Source: Acidobacteriaceae bacterium (GTDB lineage Bacteria; Acidobacteriota; Terriglobia; Terriglobales; Acidobacteriaceae). From it: 42,891 bases of DNA. How positions within the stretch are numbered: position 1 is the stretch's first letter; every line of letters begins with the position of its first letter. The DNA is taken from positions 8,120 through 51,010 of the forward strand of contig PLBD01000467.1 in assembly GCA_003135315.1 (NCBI GenBank), written 5' to 3'. Of the stretch, positions 5,287 to 39,887 are shown piece by piece. Under the pieces are notes generated by a model. It saw nothing but the letters and a program-made list of their open reading frames with translations, searched no databases and had not been told where the DNA came from. The translations under genes and the position numbers were made by a program.

Positions 5287-5290
5287 GCGG

Positions 5291-5521: not shown

Positions 5522-5538
5522 CGACGTCCTCATGCGCA

Positions 5539-5747: not shown

Positions 5748-5757
5748 ATGCATGCAT
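5748..5757. promoter_or_regulatory. Perfect 10-bp palindrome ATGCATGCAT in the divergent intergenic region
   Basis: Read directly. It lies between the divergent HTH operon and the helicase gene, 78 nt upstream of ATG 5835. Function unknown. Confidence 0.25.
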
Positions 5758-5834
5758 GCGTCTCTTAGGAAGTGCAACATGGCGCTCGATTTGCTTCAAC
5801 AGGCCCGCCTTGCATCTAGAGAAGGAGCGCCCTA

Positions 5835-12623: not shown

Positions 12624-12629
12624 TTTTCC

Positions 12630-13616: not shown

Positions 13617-13637
13617 TCAAGCCTCAGGGAGCAAAGG

Positions 13638-17527: not shown

Positions 17528-17753
17528 TGACCTGGTCTTGCCAAGCAAGTATGTCGGCGGCGCGCCACCGAACAGCTCTGGGCCCAACACGAGTCTGCGC
17601 CGGGAATCGCCTTTCGCTTATCAGCTGATAGATCATCGATCTCGATAGGCCGACCAGGCTCTCGACATCCGACAGGCGTAAGAGACGGCGTGAGATTAGT
17701 GGGTCATCGAAGTCGCGAGCAACTGAAATCTTCTGTGAACCGCCAGACTGCAC
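17499..17753 (-). CDS. Second AlpA-family HTH gene copy, 5'-truncated relative to copy 1
   Basis: LLRLSDVESLVGLSRSMIYQLISERRFPAQTRVGPRAVRWRAADILAWQ is present, starting from GTG 17753. Homology to copy 1 continues upstream of the GTG (EVIRLASRRVDP) and stops abruptly at about 17790. The C-terminal tail differs and overlaps the UDG gene end. Confidence 0.6.
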   Translation of the reverse strand: MQSGGSQKISVARDFDDPLISRRLLRLSDVESLVGLSRSMIYQLISERRFPAQTRVGPRAVRWRAADILAWQDQVIIGCQGCAR

Positions 17754-17791
17754 AGGGTCTACGCGACGGCTAGCGAGCCGGATGACTTCAT
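17534..17791. repeat. Direct repeat R1, copy B
   Basis: Aligns to 9523-9780 (see copy A). Its right end abuts repeat R2 at 17790. Confidence 0.85.
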
Positions 17792-17968
17792 GCCGCCGTA
17801 CTTATGCCGTATTTATTGCGGCTCATGGAGATAGATGCTTGATTTGCTGGCGGGCGGTATCTGGTTCTCCAAGATCGTCGCTGGAGCGATGGGGCAAGAA
17901 GCGCAGCGCTATACTCTACACATTGGCAGGATGCTGAAGGTCGAGCACTGGGATAGGCAGCGTAGCAG
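17790..17968 (+). repeat. Repeat R2, copy 1 (~179 bp)
   Basis: The first 119 nt match 24028-24146 except at one position. The 3' ~80 nt are diverged and include the invariant 15-mer CTCTACACATTGGCA (17914-17928). Confidence 0.85.
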
Positions 17969-24027: not shown

Positions 24028-24210
24028 ATGCCGCCGTACTTATGCCGTATTTATTGCGGCTTATGGAGATAGATGCTTGATTTGCTGGCGGGCGGTATCT
24101 GGTTCTCCAAGATCGTCGCTGGAGCGATGGGGCAAGAAGCGCAGCGGGAGCTATGCTCTACACATTGGCAGGGTACTGAAGGTTAAGCACTGGGGTAGGG
24201 TGAAGCAGTG
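24028..24210 (+). repeat. Repeat R2, copy 2
   Basis: See R2 copy 1. The invariant 15-mer is at 24156-24170. Confidence 0.85.
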
Positions 24211-24884: not shown

Positions 24885-25126
24885 GAAGTGAATCTATACG
24901 AGCATCGTCGGGAGGCCATGACCAAGGGGGCGAAGGTCGATGCTAAGAACGCGAAGTGTTTGGAGCCCGATCAATCGGAAGGATGATGGCCTTAGAATTC
25001 TGGTAACCCGCTTCGTGGCCGCGGCCTGCCGGCATAGCGCTATGACGTCTGGTTGTGAGATACCATACGTCCTTCAGCCGTGTAAGGTGACTGATTCGTC
25101 CCCTCGAATCTCCCAATCAGTTTGCC

Positions 25127-26503
25127 ATGAGCGCCAGATTACTTATCATCGCACTGGATGCCACCGATCTGCGCCTGCTCCAGCGCCACATCGGCGCGGG
25201 GCGGCTTCCGGTGATTGCCGCATTACGAACTTATGGACGCTTCAAGACGTTGTCGGCAAGCGCGTGCGCGACGGACGCCGCGCTGTGGGCATCTTTCCAC
25301 TACGGCACCGAAATCGGCGAACACGGGCGCTACCATGACTATCTGAGACTCCAGGACGGGCGGCACGGACTGGCGGTTCAAAACGAGCAGCAACGCGACG
25401 CAATCTGGGATGAGCTGTCGCATCGTGGCATGCGGGTCGCAGTCTTCGATTTGCCGAAGAGCCGGGCTCCCGCACCAATCAACGGTCTCCACCTCACTGA
25501 TTGGCTAGTTCATGGCCGCACGTTTTCCCGCCCGTTGAGTTACCCGGTCGAGTTGGCGGAAGAGGTGCTTAACCGATTCGGCGAAGCGCCGCACAGTCGT
25601 TGTGATCGAATCTGTGAGGAGCTGACCGATCCTCAAATCTCGCAGGTATGCGCTCATCTGCGGCAGTCGGTTTCCATGAAACGACTTGCCGCCCTGTCTT
25701 ATCTGGCACGTGAGCCATGGGACTGCTTCGCTGTCAGTTTCATGGAGATCCATTGCTGCAGTCACGGTTTCTGGAATCTGATTGACCCAGGTCACCCGGC
25801 CCACGATCCTGCGAGAAGCTCGCGCCTCGGCGATCCCTCAGTCGAGATTTTCCAGGACATTGATCGCGCGCTCGGCGATCTTGTCACTGCCGCGGGCCAG
25901 AATTCCGAAGTGATCGTATTTTCCACGTCGGATTTTCAGGCGAATGGAACAGTAAACCATCTGCTGCCTCAAATCGTCCTGCAGCTGAACAAATTTATTT
26001 GGAACCACGGCGCCGCATCGTTACTGCCCAGATCGAACTGGGGTGTGAAAATGTTGCCGTACAATGAGAACGCCTGCGCGCTGCGTTTATCCTGTATACC
26101 ACGTATATCACGCGCATACGAGGCACCACCAGACGGCAGCCGCGCAACAACGATTAAGGAGCTGGAGGACATCTTGCGAAAAATCTCCGATCCCGCCACA
26201 GGCGAGACAATATTTGAGGCGTTTCACCGACCGTCGAGTGACTATGCGGGAGTAAGATCCCACTGCCTTCCCGATATGTTGCTGGTTCCAAGGGCTGGCG
26301 TGTTTCCGCAAATGGTGGTATCCCCGGAACTTGGTTGTATCAGGGGTGAGGTGCCCAGCTGGAGGCTCGGCAACCATCGCGACGGTGGCTTCGTGATCGC
26401 GCGCGGCGCCGCAGTCGAAGCAATGATTGGTGGAGTCGATTCGCTCGCGCAACTAAGCCGGGGTGTAAGCAACGCGCTGTTGACCCGACCCCTATTGACA
26501 TAA
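25127..26503 (+). CDS. Alkaline-phosphatase-superfamily protein (nucleotide pyrophosphatase/phosphodiesterase-like), divergent
   Basis: The N-terminus LLIIALDATDLRLLQRHIGAGRLPVIAAL...SASACATDAALWASFHYGTEIGEHG follows the type-I phosphodiesterase layout. I could not confirm several catalytic positions. Confidence 0.45.
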   Translation: MSARLLIIALDATDLRLLQRHIGAGRLPVIAALRTYGRFKTLSASACATDAALWASFHYGTEIGEHGRYHDYLRLQDGRHGLAVQNEQQRDAIWDELSHRGMRVAVFDLPKSRAPAPINGLHLTDWLVHGRTFSRPLSYPVELAEEVLNRFGEAPHSRCDRICEELTDPQISQVCAHLRQSVSMKRLAALSYLAREPWDCFAVSFMEIHCCSHGFWNLIDPGHPAHDPARSSRLGDPSVEIFQDIDRALGDLVTAAGQNSEVIVFSTSDFQANGTVNHLLPQIVLQLNKFIWNHGAASLLPRSNWGVKMLPYNENACALRLSCIPRISRAYEAPPDGSRATTIKELEDILRKISDPATGETIFEAFHRPSSDYAGVRSHCLPDMLLVPRAGVFPQMVVSPELGCIRGEVPSWRLGNHRDGGFVIARGAAVEAMIGGVDSLAQLSRGVSNALLTRPLLT

Positions 26504-26517
26504 GTCGGGAGCAATCG

Positions 26518-27318
26518 ATGAGCGTCAGGCTGAACCTTTTTCTCAAGGGTAATCTTGATGTGTGCGATACCCTGTTCGGCCAGCGCCTGACAGGCAGGAT
26601 GGGTTGGAATGGTATCAATGAGGTATTGCGGGCAGTCGACCGCGCTGTCACGGTGCGCGTACGACACGAACCGAGTATCGGCTTCGCGGCGCACGCGGCC
26701 GCAAACGCGGTGGTGCCGCGCGAGCTGTCCGATCGCTCCGCGCTACTTGGACCGTTCACTCCCGCGCTGCAGTTCAGTGATTCGGCGTTCACGTGGCCGC
26801 ACGCGGCCCTGGTGATGTCGGTGCAGGCGGATTTATGCGTTCCGCTGCTTCGTCATCGCACGCTGGACTATCTGATGCATCCGTACGATCTGAGGTGCTG
26901 GCCGGCGGCGGATCTGGACTGGCTCAAGTTGCATTTCGTCCCCGAACCGGCACCGGGCGCCGAACGCAGCATGCAGGATCTTGCCCAGGTGATTGATCGC
27001 TACCGCCGCACGAGCGAAGCGCCGATCCTGGTGTTCAATATGTCCAGCGTGGTGCCGGGTGAGACGATTCATAGCTATCGGGGCGCAGCCGATGCGACGT
27101 CCCAGCGGATCCGACGCTTCAATTGCGCGCTAGTGGACGCTTCTGCCGAATTAGGCTTTTCAATTGTCGACGTTGATAGGATCATTGCGGAACACGGAGC
27201 CCGCCAGCTCAAGTTTGACCCGATTCACTTCAATGCCGAAGGGTGTCGCCTGGTGTGCGAAGACGTGGTCAGGATTCTCGATGATTATGGTGTGCTCGCC
27301 GAAGGGCAGGACTCGTGA
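26518..27318 (+). CDS. SGNH/GDSL-fold-like protein (paralog 1), block I degenerate
   Basis: The C-terminal DPIHFNAEG is a DxxH block-V-like motif. PILVFNMSSVVPGE...RIRRFNCALVDASAELGFSIVDVDRIIAEHG is shared with two paralogs. The N-terminal KGNLDV replaces the usual GDS. Confidence 0.45.
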   Translation: MSVRLNLFLKGNLDVCDTLFGQRLTGRMGWNGINEVLRAVDRAVTVRVRHEPSIGFAAHAAANAVVPRELSDRSALLGPFTPALQFSDSAFTWPHAALVMSVQADLCVPLLRHRTLDYLMHPYDLRCWPAADLDWLKLHFVPEPAPGAERSMQDLAQVIDRYRRTSEAPILVFNMSSVVPGETIHSYRGAADATSQRIRRFNCALVDASAELGFSIVDVDRIIAEHGARQLKFDPIHFNAEGCRLVCEDVVRILDDYGVLAEGQDS

Positions 27319-28337
27319 AGGTCAGCGTCGTCATTCGCACTCATGACGAGGCGCCGCGTCTGCGTCTGACGCTGGCATCTCTCAAACGGCAGGACCACCT
27401 GTCGGAAGTGGTCGTCGTCGACGACGGTTCCACCGACACCACCGCGGATGTAATCGATGAGGCCTCGTCGTTTCTTCCAATTGTTCGGCTGCGTCACGGC
27501 ACAGCGAAGGGGCGCTCGGCGGCGTCCAACGCCGGCGCCCACGCTGCGTGCGGCGACATCCTCATCATGCTTGACGGCGACATGCCGGTGGCTCCGGGAT
27601 TTGTCGCCGCGCACGCGACTGCGCACGAGCGCGGCGGCGTCATCGGTCGCGGAGCGTGTTTCAATTTACGCTGCACCCGATTCGTATACGACCCCGAACG
27701 GGTGATAGCGTTTCCTCATTGCGAGGAGCGGCTGCTAGGCGTGAGCAATGCGGAACGGGAACGCATGAGGGTGACACGCGCGGATATCGAGGATAACTTC
27801 GCCTCGATTGAGAGGCGCGCGCAACCCGGCATCTATCCCGGGTTCGGTCCTTGCCGGCTGGCCGAGATTGAAATGCATGCCCTGCGGGAGCACCCGGAGT
27901 GTGACGTGCTATGGGCAGCGGCCACCGGCAGCAATCAGTCTGTGCGCCGTGATTTGTTTCTCGCGGCCGGCGGATTTCACGAGCAGATGACCATCAACGA
28001 ACATAGGGAGCTTGCGCTGCGCCTGACGAGGCTCGGAGGCGTTATGCGTCCTGTCGAACAGGCTCGCTGTTACCATTTGACGCACCGGTCCGGATGGCGC
28101 AGTCCGTTTGAGGATACGCAGTGGGAAACACTGTTCTGGGAACGGCACCCGCTTCCGGAGGTCGCGCTGATGCCAGTGCTGTGGGCCAGCCTGTCCGATC
28201 ATCCTTCGATACCCTCCGAGCACAAGATCCTGTCTCTACCGGCGCTGGCCGCCGCCGCCCATCGCACGCGCCATGTCACCGCCCGATCTGCCGCTGAATT
28301 CCGTGCGTCCTTAGGGCTGCGGGAATCATTCGCATGA
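27315..28337 (+). CDS. Glycosyltransferase family 2
   Basis: VSVVIRTHDEAPRLRLTLASLKRQ, VVVVDDGSTDTT and ILIMLDGDM (DxD) are present. GTG 27315 overlaps the upstream stop (GTGA). Confidence 0.8.
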   Translation: MKVSVVIRTHDEAPRLRLTLASLKRQDHLSEVVVVDDGSTDTTADVIDEASSFLPIVRLRHGTAKGRSAASNAGAHAACGDILIMLDGDMPVAPGFVAAHATAHERGGVIGRGACFNLRCTRFVYDPERVIAFPHCEERLLGVSNAERERMRVTRADIEDNFASIERRAQPGIYPGFGPCRLAEIEMHALREHPECDVLWAAATGSNQSVRRDLFLAAGGFHEQMTINEHRELALRLTRLGGVMRPVEQARCYHLTHRSGWRSPFEDTQWETLFWERHPLPEVALMPVLWASLSDHPSIPSEHKILSLPALAAAAHRTRHVTARSAAEFRASLGLRESFA

Positions 28338-29173
28338 CCGCCAGTGTCGGGAGCGCACGTCTTGCTGTGCGCTGCGCGCCCACAGAGCGTGCGCTGTGGC
28401 AGGCAGTGACCTCACGCCTGAATGAGGGATTGGGCGGCGCCCGTTCGTTTCAATCCGTGTGGCGGGATGATCTTTGCCCGGCCGCGGATGACGGCTGCGA
28501 TGTTCTGTGTTTGTCGATGTTGCCCGATCTATCTCGACCCCGCAGCGACTGGCCGGCCATCGAGGCACAGTGGCGCCTGGATGCCGCGGCGCTGCGTGAC
28601 CGTGAGCTGGAACGCGGCGCCACGGTGTTCATCGTCACTCTATTTCGCTACACCACGGGCGAAGACGATGCGCTGCTGCCCATGCTGCGCAGGCTCAACC
28701 TGCTGGCCGCGCGCCTGTCGCAGGAGTTCGGGCTGTTCGTGATCGATATCGATCGGATATTTGCCCACGCGGGAGGCATGGAGCTGCGTGCCGATGTGCG
28801 GCTTGCCTCCGCTGAAGCACGGCGCTCGGCGGCTGACCTGATCGTGGGCAGCCTGCTGAGCGTTGGCATCGATCATGTTGCTGAGCCAGCGGCGATCCAG
28901 GCTGCGCGCAGCTGGCATGAATCGCACTGCGTGGTCGGATCAGCGGGCCATTCCACCGCAGCCAGTTCGGGACAAATGAAGCGCAGCTATGTGAGAGGTC
29001 GCACCCAGACATCTTTGACCCAGTCGCACGACGTTTACGGAGGCATACGCAGCGTACTGCGGGATCTTTGCGCTGCGCGACTCGGTCTCAGGTGGCGGAT
29101 GCCGTTGCTGTTCGCGCTGTGGCGGATGGCCTCCGGCCGAGTGATCGGTGGGATCGGCAGGCAACGCATATGA
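28334..29173 (+). CDS. SGNH-fold-like protein (paralog 2), catalytic motifs apparently lost
   Basis: TVFIVTLFRYTTGEDD...LRRLNLLAARLSQEFGLFVIDIDRIFAHAG aligns by eye to paralog 1. No DxxH motif is present. There are ATGA overlaps at both ends. Confidence 0.4.
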   Translation: MTASVGSARLAVRCAPTERALWQAVTSRLNEGLGGARSFQSVWRDDLCPAADDGCDVLCLSMLPDLSRPRSDWPAIEAQWRLDAAALRDRELERGATVFIVTLFRYTTGEDDALLPMLRRLNLLAARLSQEFGLFVIDIDRIFAHAGGMELRADVRLASAEARRSAADLIVGSLLSVGIDHVAEPAAIQAARSWHESHCVVGSAGHSTAASSGQMKRSYVRGRTQTSLTQSHDVYGGIRSVLRDLCAARLGLRWRMPLLFALWRMASGRVIGGIGRQRI

Positions 29174-30105
29174 CCGCGAGCAGCGACATCGATGCGCTGG
29201 CAGCGATGATACTCGCTCGCGAACTGGAGTCGGCGCTGTCGAAGCGGGCGGATTGCGGGTTTCAATTGCTCTCCAGCGGCCAGGAGGCCGTGGCGGTGGG
29301 GGTGGCCGCTGCGCTGCTGGCGCACGATCAGTTGTTGTGCAGCGGCCGCTCGATTGCGCCCGCACTGGCGCGAGGTCTGGACCCCGGGAGGGTCATGGCC
29401 GAGTTAATCGGGCGGGCATCGGGTCCTTGTTTAGGGCGTGGCGGACGCGGTCATTTGTCGCAACCCTCCGCGGGTTTCTTCGGTGCACATGCCGTCGTCG
29501 CCGGGAACCTCAGCATTGCCGCCGGGGTCGCCTTGGCACTGCAGGCTCGGCGCGATCGAAGCATTGCCGTTTGCATGTTCGGTGACGGGGCTTGCGGTGC
29601 AGGCGCGCTGCACGAAACCATGAATATTGCAGCGCTGTGGCAACTGCCACTGCTGCTGGTGTGTGACAATAATCTGTACTCCGTCTCCACACCACGGGCA
29701 GCGGCCCTGGCCCCGCAGCGATTGTCGGATCTTGCGGCTCCCTTCGGTATCGAGGCCTGCACGGTCGATGGCATGGATGTGCGCGTGGTACGCGAAGCCG
29801 CGGTCGAATTGACCGACTATGTTCGTAACGGTGGTGGCCCTGCGTTCCTGGAATGTATATCGCGCCGGTACGCTTCGCATTCGACTTCGGCGCGAGAGAC
29901 GCGGGGACAGCAGGAACTGGCGGCGGATCGAGAACTGGATCCAATCACTCGGCTCGAGAATGCCTTGCTGTCGGAGGGCGCGTTGAGCGCGCAAACCGCG
30001 CAGGCGCTGCGCGAGCAGGTACGGGCCAAGGTAGCGGCTGCCTGTGCCTTTGCCGATCTGTCCCCGTTACCTGTGCCAGAGGAAGCATTCGCTGATGTCG
30101 TCTGA
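29170..30105 (+). CDS. Thiamine-diphosphate-dependent 2-oxoacid dehydrogenase E1 component, alpha subunit (AcoA/PdhA-like)
   Basis: SSGQEAVAVGV and the TPP motif MFGDGACGAGALHETMNIAALWQLPLLLVCDNNLYSVST are present. ATG 29170 overlaps the upstream stop (ATGA). Confidence 0.85.
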   Translation: MTASSDIDALAAMILARELESALSKRADCGFQLLSSGQEAVAVGVAAALLAHDQLLCSGRSIAPALARGLDPGRVMAELIGRASGPCLGRGGRGHLSQPSAGFFGAHAVVAGNLSIAAGVALALQARRDRSIAVCMFGDGACGAGALHETMNIAALWQLPLLLVCDNNLYSVSTPRAAALAPQRLSDLAAPFGIEACTVDGMDVRVVREAAVELTDYVRNGGGPAFLECISRRYASHSTSARETRGQQELAADRELDPITRLENALLSEGALSAQTAQALREQVRAKVAAACAFADLSPLPVPEEAFADVV

Positions 30106-31084
30106 GCCCGTGCGCACACGCAGGGTGTTCTTTCGCGAAGCGATCTGTCGAGCCGTTGGCGAGACGCTCGACGCCGAACCCAACGCCATTGTCATGGGCC
30201 AGGATGTGGGAGCGTTCGGGGGATCCTATAAGGAGTTTTACGGGCTGTTCGAACGCTTTGGTCCCGCGCGGGTGCGCGATACGCCGGTCGCCGAGGCGGC
30301 TATGGTGGGACTGGGTGTTGGCGCGGCCGCCGCGGGCCTGCGCACTCTGGTGAGCATTACCTACATGGACTTCGTGCTGCTCGCCCTGGATCCGCTGGTC
30401 AATTACGCTGCCAAGGCGCGATTCAAGACAGGCGGGCAGATTCGGGTTCCCATGGTGGTCAAATTGACGGCGGGCGCCAAGGGGCAGGGCGTTGCCCACT
30501 CTCAATCGCTGGAGTCGTGGCTCATGTCGGTGCCAGGGCTTCGTGTGGTCGCACCGTCCAACGTCGCGGACGCTTACGGCTTGATGCGATCCGCGCTTCA
30601 GGCCGATGGACCCGTGGTCTATGTCGATCACAAGCGACTCTTCCCGACGTCGGGCCCGCTGAATGCTTCGGCGCATGAGGTGCCCTTCGGCCTGGCGGCT
30701 GTCTCCCGTCCGGGCAGGCATGCGACCATTGTGACTCACTCCTATATGGTCTGCGTGGCGCTGGCTGCCTGCGATGAGCTTGCGGTCAGTGGCATCGACT
30801 GCGAGGTGATCGACCTGCGCAGCCTCGCACCATTGGACCTGGCAACCGTCTGCACATCGGTGTCAAAAACCGGTGCGCTTCTCACGCTTGAGGAGGGGCA
30901 GGTGGTGTGCGGGATCGGTGCCGAGATCGCCTATCAGGCGCAGGCGAGGCTGGGACCCGTCAGAGTATCGCGACTGGGAGCAATGCCAGCGCCTGTTTCG
31001 TCGAATCCAGTGCTGGAGGCCGCCAGTCTGCCGGATGCCGGGCGCGTCGCCGATGCGGTTCGTCGTCTACTCATGGAAGGATAA
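30095..31084 (+). CDS. 2-oxoacid dehydrogenase E1 component, beta subunit
   Basis: IVMGQDVGAFGGSYKEFYGLFERFGPARVRDTPVAEAAMVG, HSQSLESWLMSVPGLRVVAPS and IDLRSLAPLD are present. ATG 30095 overlaps the alpha-subunit gene by 11 nt. Confidence 0.85.
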   Translation: MSSEPVRTRRVFFREAICRAVGETLDAEPNAIVMGQDVGAFGGSYKEFYGLFERFGPARVRDTPVAEAAMVGLGVGAAAAGLRTLVSITYMDFVLLALDPLVNYAAKARFKTGGQIRVPMVVKLTAGAKGQGVAHSQSLESWLMSVPGLRVVAPSNVADAYGLMRSALQADGPVVYVDHKRLFPTSGPLNASAHEVPFGLAAVSRPGRHATIVTHSYMVCVALAACDELAVSGIDCEVIDLRSLAPLDLATVCTSVSKTGALLTLEEGQVVCGIGAEIAYQAQARLGPVRVSRLGAMPAPVSSNPVLEAASLPDAGRVADAVRRLLMEG

Positions 31085-31086
31085 CG

Positions 31087-31392
31087 ATGCTTTATAAACT
31101 GCTCTTGCCGGGCCCAATTGTTGATCTGTCAGAAGTGCGCGTGCTGGAGTGGCATGGATCGCCAGGAACACAATTCAATCCCGGCGATCTCGTGCTTGAA
31201 CTCGATACGCACAAGGCCGTCGTGGAAATGCGCGCGAGCTCGAAAACAGTATTGCGCAAGATTCTGATAGAACCCGGGGAGTGGCAGCGAGTCGGCGAAC
31301 CTCTGGCCATTGTCAGCGACAGCGCTGATGAGCCACTGCCCGAGCGCGCCGAGGATCTCGCTCAGGCGAGCGTCATCTATGAAATGGTTTGA
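31087..31392 (+). CDS. Free-standing lipoyl/biotinyl-attachment-domain protein (101 aa)
   Basis: VRVLEWHGSPGTQFNPGDLVLELDTHKAVVEMRASSKTVLRKILIEPGEWQRVGEPLAIV has the E2 lipoyl-domain layout, with a Lys at the hairpin tip (DTHKA). ATG 31087 is 2 nt after the E1-beta stop. No E2 catalytic domain follows. Confidence 0.75.
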   Translation: MLYKLLLPGPIVDLSEVRVLEWHGSPGTQFNPGDLVLELDTHKAVVEMRASSKTVLRKILIEPGEWQRVGEPLAIVSDSADEPLPERAEDLAQASVIYEMV

Positions 31393-32753
31393 GCGCGCGG
31401 GAGGGCGAAAAATTCACGCTGTTCGAGGATATGAAGGATTTCCCCGCGTACTTCGTCCTGCATAGGGCCACTTTGATGCACGCCGTCTGGCAAGTGTGCC
31501 GCGGCACCCAGACCGGCCGCGATCGAATCCACATCGACGATCGCGATATCTGTCTCCTCAGCGAGATCATGCAGCATGAGATTGAGCTCTTTCGCTCGCA
31601 CGCTGGGGAGTTCGTCGCCGAGCGCCTGGGAGAACGGAGCGTAAGTGAAGATGCTCTCGCCTCCGGAGGTAGACAACGCGTTCATGATCAGGACATGTCT
31701 GACGCCCCGCTCGGCCAGTAGTTTGCGCAACTCTCTAAGATCAGTCTGAATGTCGTCTATCGTGCGCGACAGGGGCTCAAAATTGACGTTGAGCCAGTTG
31801 CGGATCGCCTGCCCGGTTGTATCCACTCGGAAGCGGTGCCAGTAGGCTCGGTAGCCCAATTTTCTGTGGCGAAGAACGACCTTCGGCTCCGCATTCACTG
31901 AAAGCACCACCGCATCGACCGCGACGGGGGGCGATAGGCCCTGCCTGGTGAGCAAATCGTACCGCTCGCTCAGCGGGCAGCGCGTCAGCGCGCTCAGTGC
32001 ACTGCCGGCGTAATGCCAGTCGGCCGGACCAGGTGTGACGGGACCACTGAGAACGGCCTGTGTCATGTCAGCAGCTAGCAGCGCGTTCGTCGCAGCCGTG
32101 CGTCGCATGCGGTCCGCCAGGACCGCTGCCGCCGGAACCAGATTCTCATCACCCACATGGATAACATGCAATGAGCCCGGACTTGCGGCCAGAAGTTCAG
32201 AGAAATCGTGTTGCTCGCCAAGAAAGATGCCGTTCTGTTCGCAAGTGCCAAGGCTGACCAAGGTTCCATGGCCTGAACGTTCGCCGTGCCATGCTCGCCT
32301 GATCCTGCGCCAGCCGGTGAGTCGCCCGGATCGGTCTTCCGCCAGTTCAGTCATCCGCTCTCCGGCCGAGAAGATCAACTGCCACCGCGACTGATTGCCA
32401 GCGCCGGAGGTGATATCCAGCGACCCCGGGATGAAACGCTCGCTCCAATGCTGATATCGATCAAGTTGATCGAGCCAACCTCCGCGTGATGCGTCGGGTA
32501 ACTGGTGCAGAGTGCCTGGCATCGGCGCCGCGAGTGTGACCTGAAGATCTGTTTGTTCGCGAGGAAACGGAGCCGTTGAGCGGATCTTGCCGTCCGACGA
32601 TCGAAGCCCGATGTTGCAAAAGGCGATCGGCTCACCTGCGCGGCACACATGTCTGTCCGACACCAACCAACGCAGCCCCGAGCGATAGATCACAAAGTTA
32701 TCGCACGTCAATGGTCCCAACGTAAGATCGAGCATTGTCACCAGGGCTGCCAT
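31377..32753 (-). CDS. 458-aa protein: N-terminal lipoyl-like barrel half + unknown middle + C-terminal SGNH-like domain (paralog 3)
   Basis: The N-terminus is FVIYRSGLRWLVSDRHVCRAGEPIAFCNIGL. The C-terminus VRHVLIMNALSTSGGESIF...VRAKELNLMLHDLAEETDIAIVDVDSIAAGLG...LPDGVHQSG aligns by eye with paralogs 1 and 2. ATG 32753 overlaps the upstream gene by 16 nt. Confidence 0.5.
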   Translation of the reverse strand: MAALVTMLDLTLGPLTCDNFVIYRSGLRWLVSDRHVCRAGEPIAFCNIGLRSSDGKIRSTAPFPREQTDLQVTLAAPMPGTLHQLPDASRGGWLDQLDRYQHWSERFIPGSLDITSGAGNQSRWQLIFSAGERMTELAEDRSGRLTGWRRIRRAWHGERSGHGTLVSLGTCEQNGIFLGEQHDFSELLAASPGSLHVIHVGDENLVPAAAVLADRMRRTAATNALLAADMTQAVLSGPVTPGPADWHYAGSALSALTRCPLSERYDLLTRQGLSPPVAVDAVVLSVNAEPKVVLRHRKLGYRAYWHRFRVDTTGQAIRNWLNVNFEPLSRTIDDIQTDLRELRKLLAERGVRHVLIMNALSTSGGESIFTYAPFSQALGDELPSVRAKELNLMLHDLAEETDIAIVDVDSIAAGLGAAAHLPDGVHQSGPMQDEVRGEILHILEQREFFALPRAQTIS

Positions 32754-33091
32754 TGCCGCGTGACGCCGACGACGGTCGTGCGCAATGCCCTAGGGGCGCA
32801 ATTCTCCAAGGCTTCGTCGGATGTCTTGCTGAATGTTGCTACCAGCGCGCCGACGGCAATCTTGTCGCCCGCCGCGATTGCGACGTGCCGGAGCCACGCC
32901 ACCTCAGCCGCGCAGAGTCGATAGTAGGAGACGGGAGGACAATCATGCGGAAATTGATCGCTCAGATCTACCGTCAACTCCAGGATCGCTTGCCCGACCG
33001 CGATCTTCTTGTCGGGGCGTACGAGTATCGAGTCGACGCGGGCATGGGCCATGTGCGGATTGATCAACGGCAATGAGAGCTCAAGCAACAT
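32738..33091 (-). CDS. Lipoyl/biotinyl-like barrel-sandwich domain protein lacking the modifiable lysine
   Basis: ARVDSILVRPDKKIAVGQAILELTVDLSDQ ... AWLRHVAIAAGDKIAVGALVATF mimics the two halves of a lipoyl domain, but has ELTVDLS where E(T/S)DK is expected. I prefer ATG 33091, with AAGGA 5 nt upstream; the track starts at GTG 33109. Confidence 0.5.
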   Translation of the reverse strand: MLLELSLPLINPHMAHARVDSILVRPDKKIAVGQAILELTVDLSDQFPHDCPPVSYYRLCAAEVAWLRHVAIAAGDKIAVGALVATFSKTSDEALENCAPRALRTTVVGVTRQWQPW

Positions 33092-33208
33092 CAGGGTCCT
33101 TCGCGGCACAAAATCAGGGTTTTCATCGCCCCGCGTACCTAGTTTAAGTTATCACCTTACTGAATCCGGTACCATGTACCTCCTGGCATAATCGCCCGAG
33201 CTTCCTGA

Positions 33209-34528
33209 ATGATTCACGGCCTTCCTGCGGTCACGGGGATGCGTACCGCGACCGTCGCAACAGCCCTGGAATATCTCGCGTGGGTGAGCAACCGCGTGGA
33301 CACGGCCTATGAGGCGTCGGGTGACCTGCTCGCGCAGATGCGTGTGGTGCTGGATCGATTCGTTCGCGCCGGACTGCCTTACGATACTGGGCCGGACGGC
33401 CGCCCCCGATTCGATCTTGTCGAACTGCGAAACTTCGTCCTTGTCGCGGATCAGCGCTTCGATGATCCGTTCTGGCGCCAATACGTCATGCCATTTGGAA
33501 AGCGGATCATGTTCGAGGCATACGCCGATGGCGAATCCGATAGATACGACGAAGACTCGTGCGCCAATGCGGCACGGGCTCTCTCGCCGCGGCGATTTCG
33601 CCTGCGACTGACCCGCACGTACGATCCGCGTTTTCTCAAGAAGACGCAGATCTGTCGCCTACGATTGCCGGTCCCTCTCGAGGACTCGGTGCTTACCGAC
33701 CTGCGCATGCAGCTGTCTGCGCCGAAAGAGAAAGACATCATCAGATGCAGCCGGTCCGCCGGGCGGCTCGACGTGACGGTCGACCCACGTAAAGTGTCCG
33801 AGCTTTCCTGCGCCGTGACCTATGAATTTGTCTGTGACCCCGGGAGATGCTTTTCGAAAAGCGCAATCAACCTGCGTGAAGAAGCGCTCGCGCTCGGGTC
33901 AGCGGAAAAACTGATCCGACTCACACCGGCGGTGCATGAGCTCGCAGAAAAACTCGTTGGGAGCGAGGCCGATGCGCTGAGGATTGTGCGCCTTCTCTGG
34001 GACTATCTGCATGCGAGGCTCAATATCGGAGCGCTGCGTTATTCGCAACTCGATCCGGCCGATCCGCTGATGTCAGTGCTAAATGTGGGTTGGGCAGATT
34101 GTCAGCTTGCGTCTGCAGTCCTGGTCGGACTCTGTCGGTCACGTGGGCTGGCGGCGCGAATCGTGGGCGGCTTCATGCTGCAGCATGCGCGGCCCGGGTA
34201 TCATTACTGGGCGGAGATATGGATTGCTGGACGCGGCTGGACCCCATTCGACACGCTTGGATTTGCGGTGACTCGGCCAGGGGATCGATCTGACTGGCGC
34301 AACATCTTCTTTGGTCGCGTCGATTATCGTGCTCGAGTGGAGTGTCTGCCGCATCTCTTTACCGGCCTGCCAGGATTCCAGCTCCCGCTCGCCTGGCATC
34401 AGAATGTTTCGCACATCGAGGGCGGTATCCGCACCCGCCTCGAAGATTCAAATAGCGGTGAACCCGTCTTCTCGGACGACGTGAGTTGCGAGGTTTTACA
34501 GTGGGATCAATCGGGCGCGGAGATTTGA
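33209..34528 (+). CDS. Transglutaminase-like cysteine protease superfamily protein
   Basis: The core is GWADCQLASAVLVGLCRSRGLAARIVGGFML...GYHYWAEIWIAGRGWTPFDT, which supplies a Cys-His-Asp arrangement. Confidence 0.75.
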   Translation: MIHGLPAVTGMRTATVATALEYLAWVSNRVDTAYEASGDLLAQMRVVLDRFVRAGLPYDTGPDGRPRFDLVELRNFVLVADQRFDDPFWRQYVMPFGKRIMFEAYADGESDRYDEDSCANAARALSPRRFRLRLTRTYDPRFLKKTQICRLRLPVPLEDSVLTDLRMQLSAPKEKDIIRCSRSAGRLDVTVDPRKVSELSCAVTYEFVCDPGRCFSKSAINLREEALALGSAEKLIRLTPAVHELAEKLVGSEADALRIVRLLWDYLHARLNIGALRYSQLDPADPLMSVLNVGWADCQLASAVLVGLCRSRGLAARIVGGFMLQHARPGYHYWAEIWIAGRGWTPFDTLGFAVTRPGDRSDWRNIFFGRVDYRARVECLPHLFTGLPGFQLPLAWHQNVSHIEGGIRTRLEDSNSGEPVFSDDVSCEVLQWDQSGAEI

Positions 34529-35283
34529 AAAATGGCGCCATCAAAGTTCGGGGCAACGAGGCTGACACCATCGAGTGCCGATCCAAATGCGGCTAGCTGA
34601 GAGCGAAGCTGGACTTCCTGACGAAGAATGCGTCGACGCGAAATGCCCAGGCGATTGGTACGCATTTGGTGATGCTCCATTTCATATGTATTGTGTCCGT
34701 GGCTGACATAGACATAGAGATGCGGCTTGTCGCGAAGAGTGGTGAGTACGCCTGCTGCGATGAGCTGCCGTGCGACCGCCAGCTCCTCTCCGCGGCGAGC
34801 GTCGTCGCCGAGCTCGGGATATGAAATGCCAGCATCCCTCTTGCATTGCAACGTACCGGGGTGACCGCGCGATTCGCTGGCATACCAATTGGTCCACCAC
34901 AGTCGCATCGTCATCGGGTAATACTGAAGCACATCCTGCAGAAACACGACTTTCGCGCCCGTGTTGGTCAAACCGGCCACCTGATCGGCGACTCGCTGTC
35001 ACTGATGCAAGTCGTCGTCATCCCACTGGCACAGGAACGCGCCAGTAGATAAACGCATGCTCAGGTTGCGCAAGGCGCCCAGTGTCATGCCGTCCTCGAC
35101 GATGGTGGTCCGCACGCCCGCTACGTCCATCGAATTCATCAGATCTCGTACAGGATGAGGAGCATCCGGGTCCTTGGCATCTGTGACGATCACCAATTCA
35201 ACGCACGGATACGTCTGCTGCTTGAAACAGGTAATAGCAGTGGAGAGTCCCGGCAGGCGCTCGGGAGTCCCCTTGGTGACCAT
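34507..35283 (-). pseudogene. Glycosyltransferase family 2 gene interrupted by an in-frame TGA (34999-35001)
   Basis: Two track ORFs (34999..35283 and 34507..34980) are in the same frame. Read through, they give ...AFLCQWDDDDLHQ*QRVADQVAGLTNTGAKVVFLQDV.... The first part has QQTYPCVELVIVTD and the DDDD (DxD) motif. Confidence 0.7.
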
Positions 35284-35620
35284 AAGACAACTGACCAGCG
35301 CCGAAGAGGTATTAATTTAGATAAATCCAAGCGTGCTGGGGCTGAAGCTCGATAAGTTTGGCGACACGCTCGCCAGAGCGGTCGCATCCGCGCCAAAACA
35401 CGTCGCCGGAGTCGCGGCGAACCGATCCACAGCGATAGTTGGAATCCACCGGCTTAGGTTGCTCGCATCATCTGGTCCGGACAACTCTACCGGGCACCGT
35501 CTTTTTGTGCGAAACCAGGCGCAATCAGCGATTGCGACAGGTCGATACAGGCCTGTCTATTCAATAACTTAGTCTCGTACGTGCAAATGTCTAAGTTTTC
35601 TAATTTTTGCGTTCCTCAAT

Positions 35621-36727
35621 TCACAGCGCCAGTGACGCTGACAGGTGCGGCTTCAGTTTTTTGGCCGCAATTGGCGCGTTCTCCACGCTCAGAACGTTCA
35701 TATGGTCACCTGGCAAATCGATGACGTGGCAACGTCCGTCGGTCAATGCTGCCCAACCCGTAATCACCGTGTCGTATCTGTAGGCAACTCGGTACGTCTG
35801 CCGATCAATGGCACGAAAGATCAGGATCGAGCCGCCATAGGGTGTTGGCTGATAGCGCGCGATCGCGCGATTGTTGGCCGCCTCCACCTCGCGTGCAAAT
35901 GCTTCCTCTTTCGGGAGTTCATGGATTTCGGCCATCGCAGGGAGGTGTAATTCTGCGCTGCGCAGCTGTTGGCGATGCGCCAGGCGCTCGCGAATATATT
36001 TTCGCCTGCCAGGGTGCGCGGCCAGTATCCAGGCGTGGTAGGCCGCTCGCTGCCACCTCGGCCGTATAGCGAAACCGTCCGGTGTCGACGTGTCAAACAT
36101 CGCCAGCAGGGAGACGGTCTCGCCCGCTGCGGTGAGTTGCTGCGCTGCTTCAAAGGCCGGCAGTCCCCCATAGGAATAGCCTGCCAATTGGTACGGCCCT
36201 CTGGGCTGCACGCGGCGCAGGTTCTCGAGCATCGCGGCTGCGATATCCTCGATCTTCTCGAGCGGCGCCTGCTCCCCGTTGAAGCCAGGCACGGTCAACC
36301 CGTAGCAGGGATAATCGGGTGCAAGACACATCGCCATGGGCGCGAACGTCACAGGGTGACCTCGGGCGCCGGGAAAGCAGAACAGCGGTAGTACGTGTCC
36401 CTGCGGTTGCAGGTCGATCACGCCCGGCCGGGCGGTCGCGACAGCGGCGACTTCGGGGTTGGTCAGCGCCTCCGCAATCGCATCGATGGTCGGATAATCC
36501 CATAGCAACGTGGCAGGCAATTCGCGATCCAGCCAGCCCGCCAGCGCGCCGGCGAGTCCTAGTGCCTTGAGCGAATCGACGGCGAACGAGTACAGCGGTG
36601 CATTGGAGTCGATCGACGAGCGTTCGAGTTCCACCAGCTTTGCCACTTCGGTGACGACCCAGTCGCGAATATCCGCGGCGGATGGCTCAGTTGTCTGAGG
36701 TACGACTTTAGATGACGCTTTGGGCAT
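35621..36727 (-). CDS. Acyl/peptidyl carrier protein domain fused to a thioesterase (alpha/beta hydrolase) domain
   Basis: The carrier motif is LYSFAVDSLKALGLAGAL. The TE part has LFCFPGARGHP and the nucleophile elbow LAGYSYGGLPAFEAA. ATG 36727 overlaps the FAAL gene end by 20 nt. Confidence 0.8.
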   Translation of the reverse strand: MPKASSKVVPQTTEPSAADIRDWVVTEVAKLVELERSSIDSNAPLYSFAVDSLKALGLAGALAGWLDRELPATLLWDYPTIDAIAEALTNPEVAAVATARPGVIDLQPQGHVLPLFCFPGARGHPVTFAPMAMCLAPDYPCYGLTVPGFNGEQAPLEKIEDIAAAMLENLRRVQPRGPYQLAGYSYGGLPAFEAAQQLTAAGETVSLLAMFDTSTPDGFAIRPRWQRAAYHAWILAAHPGRRKYIRERLAHRQQLRSAELHLPAMAEIHELPKEEAFAREVEAANNRAIARYQPTPYGGSILIFRAIDRQTYRVAYRYDTVITGWAALTDGRCHVIDLPGDHMNVLSVENAPIAAKKLKPHLSASLAL

Positions 36728-38441
36728 CCGGCATCTCTTCGAGTAGGTCGAGTGTTCGCGACAGATAGGCAGCGCGCGTGCCCAGGCGGCTGACCTTTCC
36801 GCTTGTGGTTCGCGGTACCGCTCCGGGACTCAGCAGAATGACCTCGTAAGGCGATACCTCGTTGAGTGCGACCACTGCGGCGCGAATGCGCTGCCGCACG
36901 GCCGCGGGATCCAGCAGGCGCGCTGTGCCGGACGCGGCCGTCCGGCGATACTCGCGCCGTACCTCAGCAGCGATGATTAACCGTTCGGCGCCGTCCAGGT
37001 CGAGCGAAAATGCAACGGCGCCGGACGATGCAATCGCCGGGTCAGCCGACTCGACGCTGCTTTCGATATCGGTGGGAAAATGATTGCGTCCGGCGACGAT
37101 GATCAGCTCGCGCAGGCGTCCGGTAATGAACAGTTCGCCGTCGGCGATAAAGCCCAGATCTCCGGTGCGAAGCCATTTATGGTCGCTGGCGGTTGGCATG
37201 TTCTCAGCGATACCGGCACCGAATGCCGCCGCAGTAGCCGGCGGATTGTTCCAATAGCCTTGAGCGATGCTGGCGCCCGCCAGCCAGATCTCACCGATCT
37301 CACCGGAGCTGACTCGCATGGCTGTCGTCGGGTCTACGATGGCGATCTGTGTGTCACCGAAGGCATGGCCACAGCCAACGTGGCCGCCGGTCTCGGCCTC
37401 GTCGAGCAAGTTGGCGTCCGCATCGCGGCGCGTCCAGCGGCGGCGAGCCGCGGATGGCCCGGCGACGAAAAGTGTAGCTTCAGCCAGGCCGTAGCATGGA
37501 AAGAATGCCTCCGGTCGAAATCCACACTGTGCGAATGCAGCCGCGAAACGCTCCAGGGTTGCGGCACGAACCGGCTCGGAGCCGTTCAGTGCATTGCGCC
37601 AATGGCTCAGATCCAGTTTCGCCTTGTGTGCGGCGCTGATCTTCTCGACGCACAGGTCATAGGCGAAGTTGGGAGCAGCGCTGCCGCACGCGCGATAATC
37701 GGACATCATCTGCAGCCACAGCCAGGGCTGCATCAGAAACCGCTCCGGCGCCATGAATACGCAATGCGCCCCCGAATAGGCTGCCTGCAGTACAAAGCCG
37801 ATGAGTCCCATGTCGTGGAACAGCGGCAGCCAGCCGGCAATGGTCTCTCCGGCACGCAGTCCACTGGCCTCGGTGATCAAAGCGCTGTTGCACACCAGAT
37901 TGTCGTGCGTGACCATGACGCCGCGTGGCGTTCCAGTGGAGCCGGATGTGTATTGCAGCAATGCGACGCGTTGGCCTGCTGATGAGATGGGAGGTGATTC
38001 GCTGACCGGGATACCGACCGCATCGGCATCGATCCAGGTCAAGGCAGTAAAGGCGCTCGTATCGCCAGGATCGGGCTGCAATCGTTGGCGCGTAGCCGTA
38101 GTGGCAATCGCAAAGCGCGCTCCGGCGTCAGCGACGATGGCCTTGAGCCGATGCTTGAGGCGCTGGTGTCGGGGCAGGCTGACCGGCACGATGATGGCGC
38201 CCGCATGCCAGCAGGCGAACAGCCATTCGACGAACGCCAGACCTGAGGGCAATGCCAGCAGCACCGGCTGGCCGCTGGCGCCCTGCAGACGCAATGTCTC
38301 CCCGAGCGCCGTGGCGCGGTGAGCGAGCTGCGACCAGGTGATGGACCGGACGCCAGCGCTGCCATCGGCGAGGAAGGTGTACGCCTTGGCATCCGGGTCG
38401 GTCACGGCGCGGCGGCGGACGATGTCCCACAGCGTCTGCAT
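36708..38441 (-). CDS. Fatty acyl-AMP ligase (FAAL; adenylate-forming enzyme)
   Basis: LLQYTSGSTGTPRGVMVTHDNLVCNS, the FAAL-like N-terminus (AYTFLADG...ITWSQLAHRA...WHAGAIIVPVSLP), and TGDLGFI..GELFITGRLRELIIVAGRNHFP are present. The ATG directly follows the P450 stop (TAAATG). Confidence 0.85.
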   Translation of the reverse strand: MQTLWDIVRRRAVTDPDAKAYTFLADGSAGVRSITWSQLAHRATALGETLRLQGASGQPVLLALPSGLAFVEWLFACWHAGAIIVPVSLPRHQRLKHRLKAIVADAGARFAIATTATRQRLQPDPGDTSAFTALTWIDADAVGIPVSESPPISSAGQRVALLQYTSGSTGTPRGVMVTHDNLVCNSALITEASGLRAGETIAGWLPLFHDMGLIGFVLQAAYSGAHCVFMAPERFLMQPWLWLQMMSDYRACGSAAPNFAYDLCVEKISAAHKAKLDLSHWRNALNGSEPVRAATLERFAAAFAQCGFRPEAFFPCYGLAEATLFVAGPSAARRRWTRRDADANLLDEAETGGHVGCGHAFGDTQIAIVDPTTAMRVSSGEIGEIWLAGASIAQGYWNNPPATAAAFGAGIAENMPTASDHKWLRTGDLGFIADGELFITGRLRELIIVAGRNHFPTDIESSVESADPAIASSGAVAFSLDLDGAERLIIAAEVRREYRRTAASGTARLLDPAAVRQRIRAAVVALNEVSPYEVILLSPGAVPRTTSGKVSRLGTRAAYLSRTLDLLEEMPDAQSVI

Positions 38442-39887
38442 TTACGAGACTGCCGGGTGCGCCACTGGCGTGCCGCTCACAAGTGCCGCGTGGCGCAACT
38501 CGATGGTCGCGGCCAAGCCCGGCGACAGTCGCAGCGTCACCCCGCCCTCGGGGCGGATCTCGCGGGCGTTGATCGGTCGTACACGGAATTCCTGGGCGAG
38601 TTGCGCCAGGAGCAGTGTTGCTTCAAGCAGCGCGAAATGCATGCCCAGGCAGATGTGGCGTCCACCCGCGAACGGCAAATAGGCGTCCCGATGCGTCGCC
38701 TGTGCGGGCGAATTGGCGAACCTGCCCGGATCGAAGCGCTCCGGATCGGTCCAGAATTCCTTGTGCCGATGCGTAATCCACGGGGAAATCAGGACATTGG
38801 CGCCACGCGGCACTGTGTGGCCGCCGACCGTCGCCTCTTCGCTCGCGACGCGCGCCATGTACCAAACCGCTGGGTACATTCGCATCGTCTCGTGGAAGAT
38901 GGCCCGCGTCCACGGCAGTTTCGCAGCATCCGCAAGTTCGGCGGCTCGGCCGCCCAGCACCTGATCGAGCTCCTGGTGCAGGGTCAATTCGATGTCGGGA
39001 TGTTCTGCAATCGCTTTCCACGCCCAGCTCAGGGACAGGGCGGTGGTCTCGTGGCCCGCGATCAACAGCGACACGATCTCATCACGGATCTGCAGCTCGC
39101 TCATCGGTCCGCTCTCGGTATCGGCCTCGATAAGCAGCGTCAATAAGTCGGGCGGCCTGTCGCACGATGCCGCCGAACGCCGGCGGCGGATCATCTCATA
39201 AGCCACCTCGTCGAGGACGGCTTTGCTGGCGGTGATATTCGCAGCACTTTCAGGCGTGAAATGTGCGGGTATGCCGAATACAAGCCAGGAGAGTTTTCCC
39301 TGCTCGGTAATCGCGAGGGCTACGGCGGCGCAGAGCTCGCCAGCCTCGGTATCGGATAGATCATCGCTGAACAGGGCTTTGACGATGACCCGCATTGTCA
39401 GCTGCGTCATATCGATGGAGACGTCGACGGCGTGGCCGGCTGCAGCCGCCATCCGCCAGGCGACCGCGGTTCTGGCCGCTTCGCGCACCATCACCGGAAC
39501 CAGTGGCGCGACGCTGCGCGGAAGAAAGTCGCCCTGCATGACACGCCGCTGCGACTTCCAGCGAGGCCCTTCACTGACAAGCAAGCCTTCGCCAAGCACC
39601 ATCTTGATGAGCGACGCCCGGCGAAAGTTCTCATCGCGCAGGATGGTTTGCACATCCTTGGGATGTGCGAACAGGAAGCACGGCCCGAGGCGCGTCTGAT
39701 AACACACCGTGTCGCCATATTGCTGCCACAACTGACCGAGAAATCTCAGCGGGTCGACGTAACCGTCAAAGGAAATGACACGGGCGGGACCGGGCGTGGC
39801 TACCTTGGACGGCAAAGCTGGCGCAAGATCCGATGCAGCGACCCCCCTTTCAGGATGGTGGTCGTTGTCCTTGGAGGGTAAATTCAA
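38442..39887 (-). CDS. Cytochrome P450
   Basis: The heme-binding loop is FAGGRHICLGMHFA, ExxR is ETMRMYP, and the I-helix is LLIAGHETTA. The start is TTG 39887 in the track, with no in-frame ATG nearby; start uncertain. Confidence 0.85.
   Translation of the reverse strand: MNLPSKDNDHHPERGVAASDLAPALPSKVATPGPARVISFDGYVDPLRFLGQLWQQYGDTVCYQTRLGPCFLFAHPKDVQTILRDENFRRASLIKMVLGEGLLVSEGPRWKSQRRVMQGDFLPRSVAPLVPVMVREAARTAVAWRMAAAAGHAVDVSIDMTQLTMRVIVKALFSDDLSDTEAGELCAAVALAITEQGKLSWLVFGIPAHFTPESAANITASKAVLDEVAYEMIRRRRSAASCDRPPDLLTLLIEADTESGPMSELQIRDEIVSLLIAGHETTALSLSWAWKAIAEHPDIELTLHQELDQVLGGRAAELADAAKLPWTRAIFHETMRMYPAVWYMARVASEEATVGGHTVPRGANVLISPWITHRHKEFWTDPERFDPGRFANSPAQATHRDAYLPFAGGRHICLGMHFALLEATLLLAQLAQEFRVRPINAREIRPEGGVTLRLSPGLAATIELRHAALVSGTPVAHPAVS

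Follow-up and report, generated by a model that had tools for sequence, protein, structure and literature searches.

A conserved module of E1, lipoyl, SGNH-fold and glycosyltransferase genes beside an independent P450-FAAL-ACP-TE cassette

Layout and conservation of the two units

The 15-kb region described here lies in a 42,891-nucleotide stretch of contig PLBD01000467.1 (positions 8,120 to 51,010; assembly GCA_003135315.1, Acidobacteriaceae bacterium), which we designate the window and whose coordinates are used hereafter. Close homologues carry names that point to a Steroidobacteraceae (Gammaproteobacteria) genome of soil or peat metagenomic origin. The region consists of two unrelated units. 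Module A (25072–35571; 10.5 kb, ten to eleven genes) combines a thiamine diphosphate (ThDP)-type E1 enzyme and a lipoyl protein with SGNH-fold proteins and glycosyltransferases, and module B (35621–39887) is a P450-FAAL-ACP-TE cassette that is a mere neighbour. Module A is widespread, sharply delimited and mobile, and its module-specific parts are wholly unannotated. We hold this two-unit structure, with module A as a conserved, mobile and uncharacterised system, with high confidence. The best reading of the conserved module is that a 2-oxoacid-derived acyl unit would be delivered via the lipoyl carrier to a glycosylated product. An initial annotation of this DNA had joined all of the genes into one pathway. 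The genes and almost all of the domains that it listed were recovered at the same positions by an open reading frame listing and by Pfam and NCBIfam scans.

Using an alignment of the family of X458, a protein of module A, we retrieved 61 genome loci (L007–L067) with 10-kb flanks each and mapped the window proteins onto all of them; six independent metagenome contigs, including L001–L004 and L006, were also compared. Some counts below use 67 loci, and 39 loci have full flanks. Eight core genes, encoding the proteins designated SGNHa, GT2, E1 alpha, E1 beta, Lip, X458, X117 and TGase, are all present in 36 of the 39 fully flanked loci, where their order is largely fixed and their span has a median of 8.2 kb. 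Individually, SGNHa was found in 58, GT2 in 60 and TGase in 58 of the 67 loci. Two further genes, unk279 and GT2b (the latter in 35 of the 67), are frequent companions of the core. The gene of an AP-like enzyme occurs in 7 of the 39 fully flanked loci, in Steroidobacteraceae and a few other loci, and is a lineage-specific accessory. The pairwise divergences of the module genes correlate with Spearman coefficients of 0.4–0.75, which fits inheritance as a unit. By co-conservation, the test that the initial annotation itself had named, the plus-strand operon, the minus-strand pair and the transglutaminase-like gene are inherited together as a single module, next to which the FAAL/P450 unit stands independently.

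The carriers are Alpha-, Beta- and Gammaproteobacteria, many of them from soil, and include the cultured Methylocella silvestris, Methylocapsa palsarum, Gluconacetobacter spp., Labrys spp. and Novosphingobium lentum. The window and L007, a related Steroidobacteraceae genome, are colinear solely from 25072 to 35571, with 94.5% DNA identity over 10.5 kb (blastn). In every pairwise comparison of six Steroidobacteraceae copies (blastn), this block of about 10.2 kb is the only shared DNA, and the sequences around it are different throughout, even where identity reaches 93%. Direct or inverted terminal repeats at the edges of module A were not above shuffled controls. A tblastn search of X458 against PLSDB plasmids gave no match, and the module is not known on plasmids. 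Horizontal mobility is supported by these variable flanks; the repeat R2, which had been cited for horizontal acquisition, gives no support and is not at the boundary. Its third copy does lie upstream of the cluster, about 0.9 kb from the edge of the module, and no repeats flank the module. The repeat family has three copies of 88–99% identity at 9517–9780, 17528–17957 and 24028–24199, of which the middle one holds both halves and the third sits between a fatty-acid-hydroxylase-like gene and a YdcZ gene. It has no Rfam match.

Module B is encoded on the minus strand and comprises a P450 (38442–39887), a FAAL-type AMP ligase (36708–38441) and an ACP-thioesterase (ACP-TE) with PP-binding and thioesterase domains (35621–36727), as assigned by Pfam and NCBIfam. 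None of the 61 genome loci, L007 among them, contains a gene for ACP-TE or P450. Homologues of ACP-TE with 45–56% identity are arranged in the order P450, FAAL and ACP-TE in L068 (3912–8116), L069 (3868–8110) and L070 (3809–8098), which have unrelated flanks and no module A gene, and Planctomycetes-like metagenome-assembled genomes are among these contexts. The trio is thus an independent, self-contained three-gene cassette, presumably for the modification of fatty acids, that has no evident connection to module A.

The single pathway of the initial annotation, in which the FAAL activates a fatty acid that the ACP carries and the P450 oxidises before it is glycosylated and given a lipoyl-delivered C2 unit, finds support in the adjacency of the units and in the position of GT2b on the same strand as the P450-FAAL-ACP-TE genes. 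We nevertheless regard it as largely refuted by the lack of co-conservation, and as extremely improbable. The link to a FAAL-derived lipid is unsupported because the trio is absent from the genome loci retrieved through X458 and recurs as its own cassette, and the colinearity with L007 stops at 35571, short of the ACP-TE gene. In addition, 337 nt of its own conserved DNA lies upstream of GT2b, and a terminator-like hairpin separates this gene from ACP-TE, although the hairpin scan as a whole was not above chance. The boundaries of the cluster are corrected accordingly, and the FAAL/P450 cassette belongs in a separate analysis.

GT2b (34507–35283, minus strand) is a small GT-A glycosyltransferase, identified by Pfam on the intact L007 orthologue. 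It had been described as a glycosyltransferase remnant in the FAAL operon, and both parts of this description proved wrong. The gene is complete, with 258 codons and one in-frame TGA at 34999–35001, directly after a DDDD motif, at a codon that reads TCA in L007. The downstream frame is otherwise intact, and the relatives are single GT-A genes of 251–258 amino acids with a conserved C-Q-W-D-D-D-D motif. Of the six independent metagenome contigs, the five that cover the gene (L001–L004 and L006) all carry this stop, and they derive from different samples. An old remnant is rejected; the stop could be a nonsense mutation of recent origin or a UGA that is leaky. GT2b belongs to module A because it adjoins the TGase gene in 35 loci, lies within the block colinear with L007 and has its own upstream DNA.

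Proteins of module A

In the window, the plus-strand operon runs from the AP-like gene to Lip, with overlaps of 4, 4, 4 and 11 nt that agree with the 4–11 nt given earlier. The minus-strand pair of X458 and X117 is convergent with this operon, and the 3′ end of X117 overlaps the start of X458 by 16 nt. No transmembrane segment or signal peptide was detected in any module protein, and all of them look cytoplasmic. PADLOC gave no match for ten module proteins and no sign of an anti-phage defence system. Rfam and tRNA scans across the window found nothing, and the counts of a promoter and terminator scan were not above chance.

Lip (31087–31392, plus strand) is a stand-alone lipoyl-domain protein of 101 amino acids (Pfam Biotin_lipoyl). 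Among NCBIfam models, it fits best with the lipoyl portion of the acetoin dehydrogenase E2 (NF011457). Its lysine is kept in all 64 orthologue matches, in the unusual motif E-T-H-K-A. X117 (32738–33091, minus strand; 117 amino acids) is a paralogue of this domain that lacks the lysine. The hhalign comparison of X117 with the Lip family gave a probability of 97% and an E-value of 6e-11. The lysine hairpin is replaced in X117 by a loop that is 11 residues longer and carries an invariant Cys-Pro-Pro, a motif that persists in distant variants.

E1 alpha (29170–30105, plus strand; 311 amino acids) matches Pfam E1_dh with an E-value of 1.5e-58. Its score with TIGR03182, 264 bits, is below the cut-off of that family, and its closest solved structure is human pyruvate dehydrogenase (PDH) E1 alpha (E-value 4e-41). 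E1 beta (30095–31084, plus strand; 329 amino acids) contains Transket_pyr and Transketolase_C domains (Pfam) and scores 276 bits with NF006667. The GDG...NN motif for ThDP and the histidine of an H-S-T motif in E1 alpha, together with the A-H-S-Q motif in E1 beta, are conserved in 36–41 orthologues. We take the histidines of H-S-T and A-H-S-Q to be the two that are needed for the reductive acylation of lipoate in the human and Geobacillus E1 enzymes.

The other components of a 2-oxoacid dehydrogenase complex were not found. The E2 catalytic domain (PF00198) is absent from all module proteins and was seen solely in the distant variant L072. A linked E3 (dihydrolipoamide dehydrogenase), which could come in trans, was found neither in the region of the window nor, across the 61 loci, among the gene families that are conserved up to 10 kb away from X458. 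The same families near X458 included no conserved lipoate ligase, transporter or regulator, and no NDP-sugar dehydratase, ketosugar or other sugar-nucleotide biosynthesis gene was present among the conserved neighbours of the module.

X458 (31377–32753, minus strand; 458 amino acids) has no match in Pfam, NCBIfam or PDB sequence searches. Its family is small: a search of 1.84 billion clusters yielded 423 representatives at E≤1e-3. From 24 homologues, AlphaFold2 produced a confident model (pLDDT 85) that suggests an SGNH fold preceded by a β-rich N-domain (approximately residues 1–170). The best Foldseek neighbours are SGNH/GDSL esterases (4h08, 7e16 and TesA), with target-normalised TM-scores of 0.5–0.6 and E-values of about 1e-3. 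In the family alignment, S361, N391, D423 and H426 are invariant and correspond in position to the Ser, Asn and Asp-x-x-His of SGNH blocks I, III and V. Based on the model, X458 appears to be mainly an SGNH-fold protein. The N-domain has no lipoyl lysine and carries a conserved cysteine. It showed recurrent but non-significant fold matches to lipoyl/biotinyl domains and barrel-containing proteins, and hhalign gave no signal between it and the Lip family. The resemblance at the fold level is weak. The initial annotation had assigned lipoyl-like domains to both genes of the minus-strand pair; this stands for X117, a true homologue of the lipoyl domain, and does not for X458 beyond its weakly similar N-domain.

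The suggestion that degenerate SGNH paralogues are present was borne out, as three SGNH-like proteins are related by hhalign. SGNHa (26518–27318, plus strand; 266 amino acids) scores 31.9 bits with Lipase_GDSL_2, just under the cut-off of 32.9, and aligns with the C-terminal part of X458 (probability 99.9%, E-value 1.7e-33), and its Ser, Asn and Asp..His positions are mostly conserved. The 279-residue unk279 (28334–29173, plus strand) has no Pfam match and aligns with SGNHa (probability 98.2%, E-value 4e-14). It has lost the histidine of block V and, from its sequence, is probably non-catalytic. None of the three proteins has the canonical GDS motif.

GT2 (27315–28337, plus strand; 340 amino acids) is a family-2 (GT-A) glycosyltransferase (PF00535, E-value 2.6e-21). 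Its PDB sequence matches are restricted to the N-terminal 110 residues or so, and the C-terminal half is conserved and family-specific. TGase (33209–34528, plus strand; 439 amino acids) contains a transglutaminase core (PF01841, E-value 2.5e-15) of the papain-like Cys-His-Asp type, and all three residues of the triad are conserved. The AP-like protein (25127–26503, plus strand; 458 amino acids) resembles phosphodiesterases/pyrophosphatases of the AP superfamily (PF01663, Phosphodiest; E-value 1.5e-12). PDB sequence searches with an X458 profile, TGase and the AP-like protein returned nothing usable.

Proposed acyl transfer and related systems

Module A may carry out a specialised, lipoate-dependent transfer of acyl groups that is tied to the synthesis of a glycoside, a reading to which we give somewhat less than an even chance. 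In such a pathway, E1 alpha/beta would decarboxylate a 2-oxoacid and reductively acylate the lipoyl-lysine of free Lip. Pyruvate is the most likely substrate, a default guess made because the closest relatives of this E1 are PDH E1 enzymes. In place of an E2 core, X458 with its lysine-less partner X117, and SGNHa, would unload the acyl-dihydrolipoyl arm through an acyl-enzyme at a Ser-Asp-His site, with unk279 as a possible scaffold. GT2 and GT2b, both soluble GT-A enzymes, would build a small glycoside or glycoconjugate, which would then receive the acyl group on a hydroxyl or an amine. TGase, with its Cys-His-Asp site, may form or trim an amide or thioester on the product or the carrier, and the AP-like enzyme of Steroidobacteraceae may remove a phosphate or nucleotide in processing either of them. 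A housekeeping E3 would re-oxidise dihydrolipoyl-Lip. These steps are inferred throughout, including which acyl group is moved, in which direction and to which acceptor, and what TGase and the AP-like enzyme do.

A more detailed version, which we consider rather doubtful as a whole, treats Lip as an acyl carrier analogous to an ACP. A dedicated E1 would load Lip, a task that the reverse reaction of an E2 catalytic domain would take over in variants. Unloading would fall to SGNH-fold acyltransferases that have co-evolved with lysine-less, cysteine-bearing pseudo-lipoyl domains (X117 and the N-domain of X458). Proteobacteria of soil and peat would thereby make an acylated glycoside or glycoconjugate in the cytoplasm, and the whole would constitute an undescribed lipoate-dependent system.

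Several observations weigh against an acyl transfer of this kind. Loci L037, L051 and L063 keep Lip and have no E1 genes within 10 kb, and neither an E3 nor a lipoate ligase gene is linked to the module. On the acceptor side, no sugar-nucleotide, transporter or regulator gene is conserved beside it, and GT2b is missing from about 40% of the loci and broken in the window. The SGNH assignment of X458 depends on weak Foldseek E-values and on motifs, Pfam and PDB sequence searches being silent. In L072, an E2 catalytic domain stands beside an X458 homologue, so that X458 need not replace E2.

The distant variants bear on the loading of the carrier. In L074 (693–9185), Lip, X117 and X458 follow one another in this order and precede E1 beta. 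Another variant has the same three genes beside TGase and GT2, and an E1-less variant contains Lip, TGase, GT2 and a methyltransferase. The variant represented by L071 (645–3871) and L072 (321–4027) encodes an X458-like protein, an X117-like protein with a D-C-P-P-V-S loop, a SGNHa-like protein, a protein of 245 amino acids, and an E2 catalytic-domain protein that lacks a lipoyl domain and has a PilZ-like N-terminus. These contigs are 4 kb in length, and no longer metagenome contigs of the E2-containing variant (P0353) were found. The invariant core is therefore Lip, X117 and X458, usually accompanied by an acyl-loading enzyme (mostly E1), GT-A enzymes and a TGase-like protein. The retention of this trio with E1 beta, without E1 or with an E2 domain fits Lip as a carrier that can be loaded by different enzymes: E2 would load Lip from acyl-CoA where that domain is present, and a housekeeping E1 would load it in the E1-less variants.

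The same trio would also fit a reading in which X458, X117 and/or TGase act on Lip itself by installing, exchanging or removing a cofactor or acyl group on the E-T-H-K-A lysine, the product being a modified carrier protein. The three genes are invariant in all variants and co-directional in several, the lysine motif is non-canonical, the TGase fold with its conserved triad suits lysine-directed acyl transfer, and both pseudo-lipoyl domains have a conserved cysteine in the absence of the lysine. This explanation, which we judge unlikely, leaves the two co-conserved GT-A enzymes and the two further SGNH paralogues unexplained. Moreover, the canonical LipB and LplA tolerate changes beside the lysine.

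The acyl-transfer reading has to be compared with the known uses of E1 enzymes and lipoyl arms. As in the 2-oxoacid dehydrogenase complexes (PDH, BCKDH and OGDH), module A has a heterodimer-type ThDP E1, closest to PDH E1, and a lipoyl lysine. It does not belong to this group, since it has neither the E2 catalytic domain nor a linked E3. It also lacks the peripheral-subunit-binding domain, and the motif is E-T-H-K-A in a free protein in place of the E-T-D-K-A of the complexes. Conversely, glycosyltransferases, SGNH-fold proteins and a TGase-like enzyme are additions of module A.

The acetoin dehydrogenase system (AcoA/AcoB/AcoC, with or without AcoL) likewise has E1 alpha and E1 beta and a lipoyl domain, and it is the lipoyl part of AcoC that Lip matches best. 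AcoC joins its lipoyl domain to a serine-hydrolase-type (alpha/beta-hydrolase) fold, not to a CAT-like E2 core, and would be a precedent for X458, the nearest in architecture that is known to us. In module A, however, the fold is SGNH, a lysine-less β-rich domain is fused to it and the true lipoyl domain is separate. A lipoyl-hydrolase fusion of the AcoC type is absent, as Lip is free-standing and the N-domain of X458 is not detectably lipoyl by profile. The acetoin system has no counterpart of GT2, TGase or the SGNH paralogues.

This likeness also suggests a catabolic module, in which SGNH esterases and the AP-like enzyme strip an imported glycoconjugate and an E1-Lip pair resembling those of acetoin and 2-oxoacid dehydrogenases oxidises the released keto compound. 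SGNH proteins are mostly esterases, as the Foldseek matches illustrate, and a membrane-bound PQQ-dependent glucose/alcohol dehydrogenase of 800 amino acids adjoins the module in 10 loci (for example, L008 17703–20126, L047 6784–9186 and L061 6654–9056). In Labrys, its gene lies between Lip and X117. Against catabolism, there is no conserved transporter, glycoside hydrolase, regulator, E2 catalytic domain or E3, two glycosyltransferases are conserved, and all of the proteins look cytoplasmic. We consider such a function quite unlikely.

E1-like pairs also occur outside dehydrogenases. To our knowledge, the systems of AviB1/AviB2 and Pau11/Pau12 have no lipoyl protein and reside in actinomycete deoxysugar clusters with NDP-sugar enzymes. 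These pairs resemble PDH E1 alpha/beta and belong to glycosylation gene sets for two-carbon branched sugars (PMC4425429). By analogy, the E1 of module A could put a C2 branch from pyruvate, as hydroxyethyl-ThDP, onto a keto-sugar, with Lip in an accessory or regulatory role. An E1-like pair among glycosyltransferases is a known signature of C2-branched sugars (PMC4425429), and module A has two glycosyltransferases by its E1. In contrast to those clusters, the lipoyl protein is always linked in module A and NDP-sugar enzymes are not conserved. A tightly linked protein with an always-conserved lysine in 64 loci would be left unexplained, E1 retains the histidines with which lipoate is reductively acylated, genes for an NDP-sugar dehydratase or a ketosugar are not among the conserved ones, and some variants keep Lip, X117 and X458 without E1. 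Branched-sugar synthesis thus seems decidedly unlikely to us.

A biosynthetic use of an E1-like enzyme and a lipoyl arm is glycolyl-ACP formation of the QncN/QncL/QncM type, in which they deliver a C2 acyl unit to a carrier with an E2-like acyltransferase and an ACP. Module A differs from it in having no E2 domain, and the one ACP nearby, that of ACP-TE, is not co-conserved. Acyl transfer to sugars and glycosides by SGNH-fold enzymes is known from AT3-SGNH proteins (OatA/OafA) and from the mycobacterial SGNH-type octanoyltransferase OctT. The known SGNH acyltransferases take the acyl group from acyl-CoA or from a membrane AT3 domain, and most of them act outside the cytoplasm. Module A shares with them the pairing of glycosyltransferase and SGNH genes, whereas its presumed donor is an acyl-lipoyl protein and its parts look cytoplasmic.

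Lipoate has been counted as the cofactor of five classical enzyme complexes, to which the sHdr sulfur-oxidation system with LbpA, a stand-alone lipoate-binding carrier, was recently added (PMC6067878). LbpA is GcvH-like, and the Hdr-like proteins and dedicated ligases to which it is linked are missing from module A. Literature searches with combinations of lipoyl, SGNH, E1, glycosyltransferase, transglutaminase, FAAL and P450 found no description of module A or module B. Module A is best filed as a lipoate/E1-based acyl-generating system that has been re-wired to SGNH-fold proteins and glycosyltransferases. If the proposed transfer is correct, it would extend lipoate chemistry into biosynthetic acyl transfer, with an SGNH fold in the place of the E2 core, lysine-less lipoyl-like domains and a connection to glycosyltransferases, and it would assign a role to several protein families that are now without annotation. 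Because the module is present in cultured, genetically tractable bacteria, the hypothesis is directly testable.

Genes around the module and in the window

In seven loci (L040, L041, L062, L044, L026, L027 and L064; for example, L041 4517–7866) from Gluconacetobacter and other Alphaproteobacteria, envelope-glycan genes are located inside or beside the module. They encode a HAD-UbiA fusion resembling prenyl-phosphate phosphoribosyltransferases, GT87/GT-C membrane proteins and other membrane glycosyltransferases, these kinds being found in 4–7 loci, as well as an extra GT2, and they hint at a polyprenyl-phosphate-linked glycan context.

L074 also contains two ABC exporters with C39 peptidase domains (one of them with FHA in addition) and cNMP-binding domains, and an AprE-like adaptor is nearby. 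A protein of 114 amino acids in this locus ends in ...MQLLVGG|EGGEDEG... and looks like a long-leader (NHLP-type) peptide precursor. We rejected a link between the exporters and the module, of which they are probably unrelated neighbours: they were seen at a single locus, where they go with this distinct NHLP-like precursor gene.

Elsewhere in the window, a DUF499/AAA ATPase (905 amino acids) adjoins an SF1 helicase of 1210 amino acids (AAA_30/UvrD_C_2) at 2569–9467. This defence-island-like pair fits a variable, mobile neighbourhood. About 10 kb upstream of the module, at 10210–15091, genes for a sulfatase-family (LTA-synthase/EptA-like) protein, a CDP-alcohol phosphatidyltransferase and a GT4 glycosyltransferase form a separate envelope-lipid/glycan set. 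On the other side, the gene at 40968–41951 encodes a protein of 327 amino acids that matches HemA weakly, in the region of the glutamyl-tRNA reductase N-terminal domain alone, and is shorter than canonical HemA. In L001, this HemA-like gene is followed by a porphobilinogen deaminase gene.

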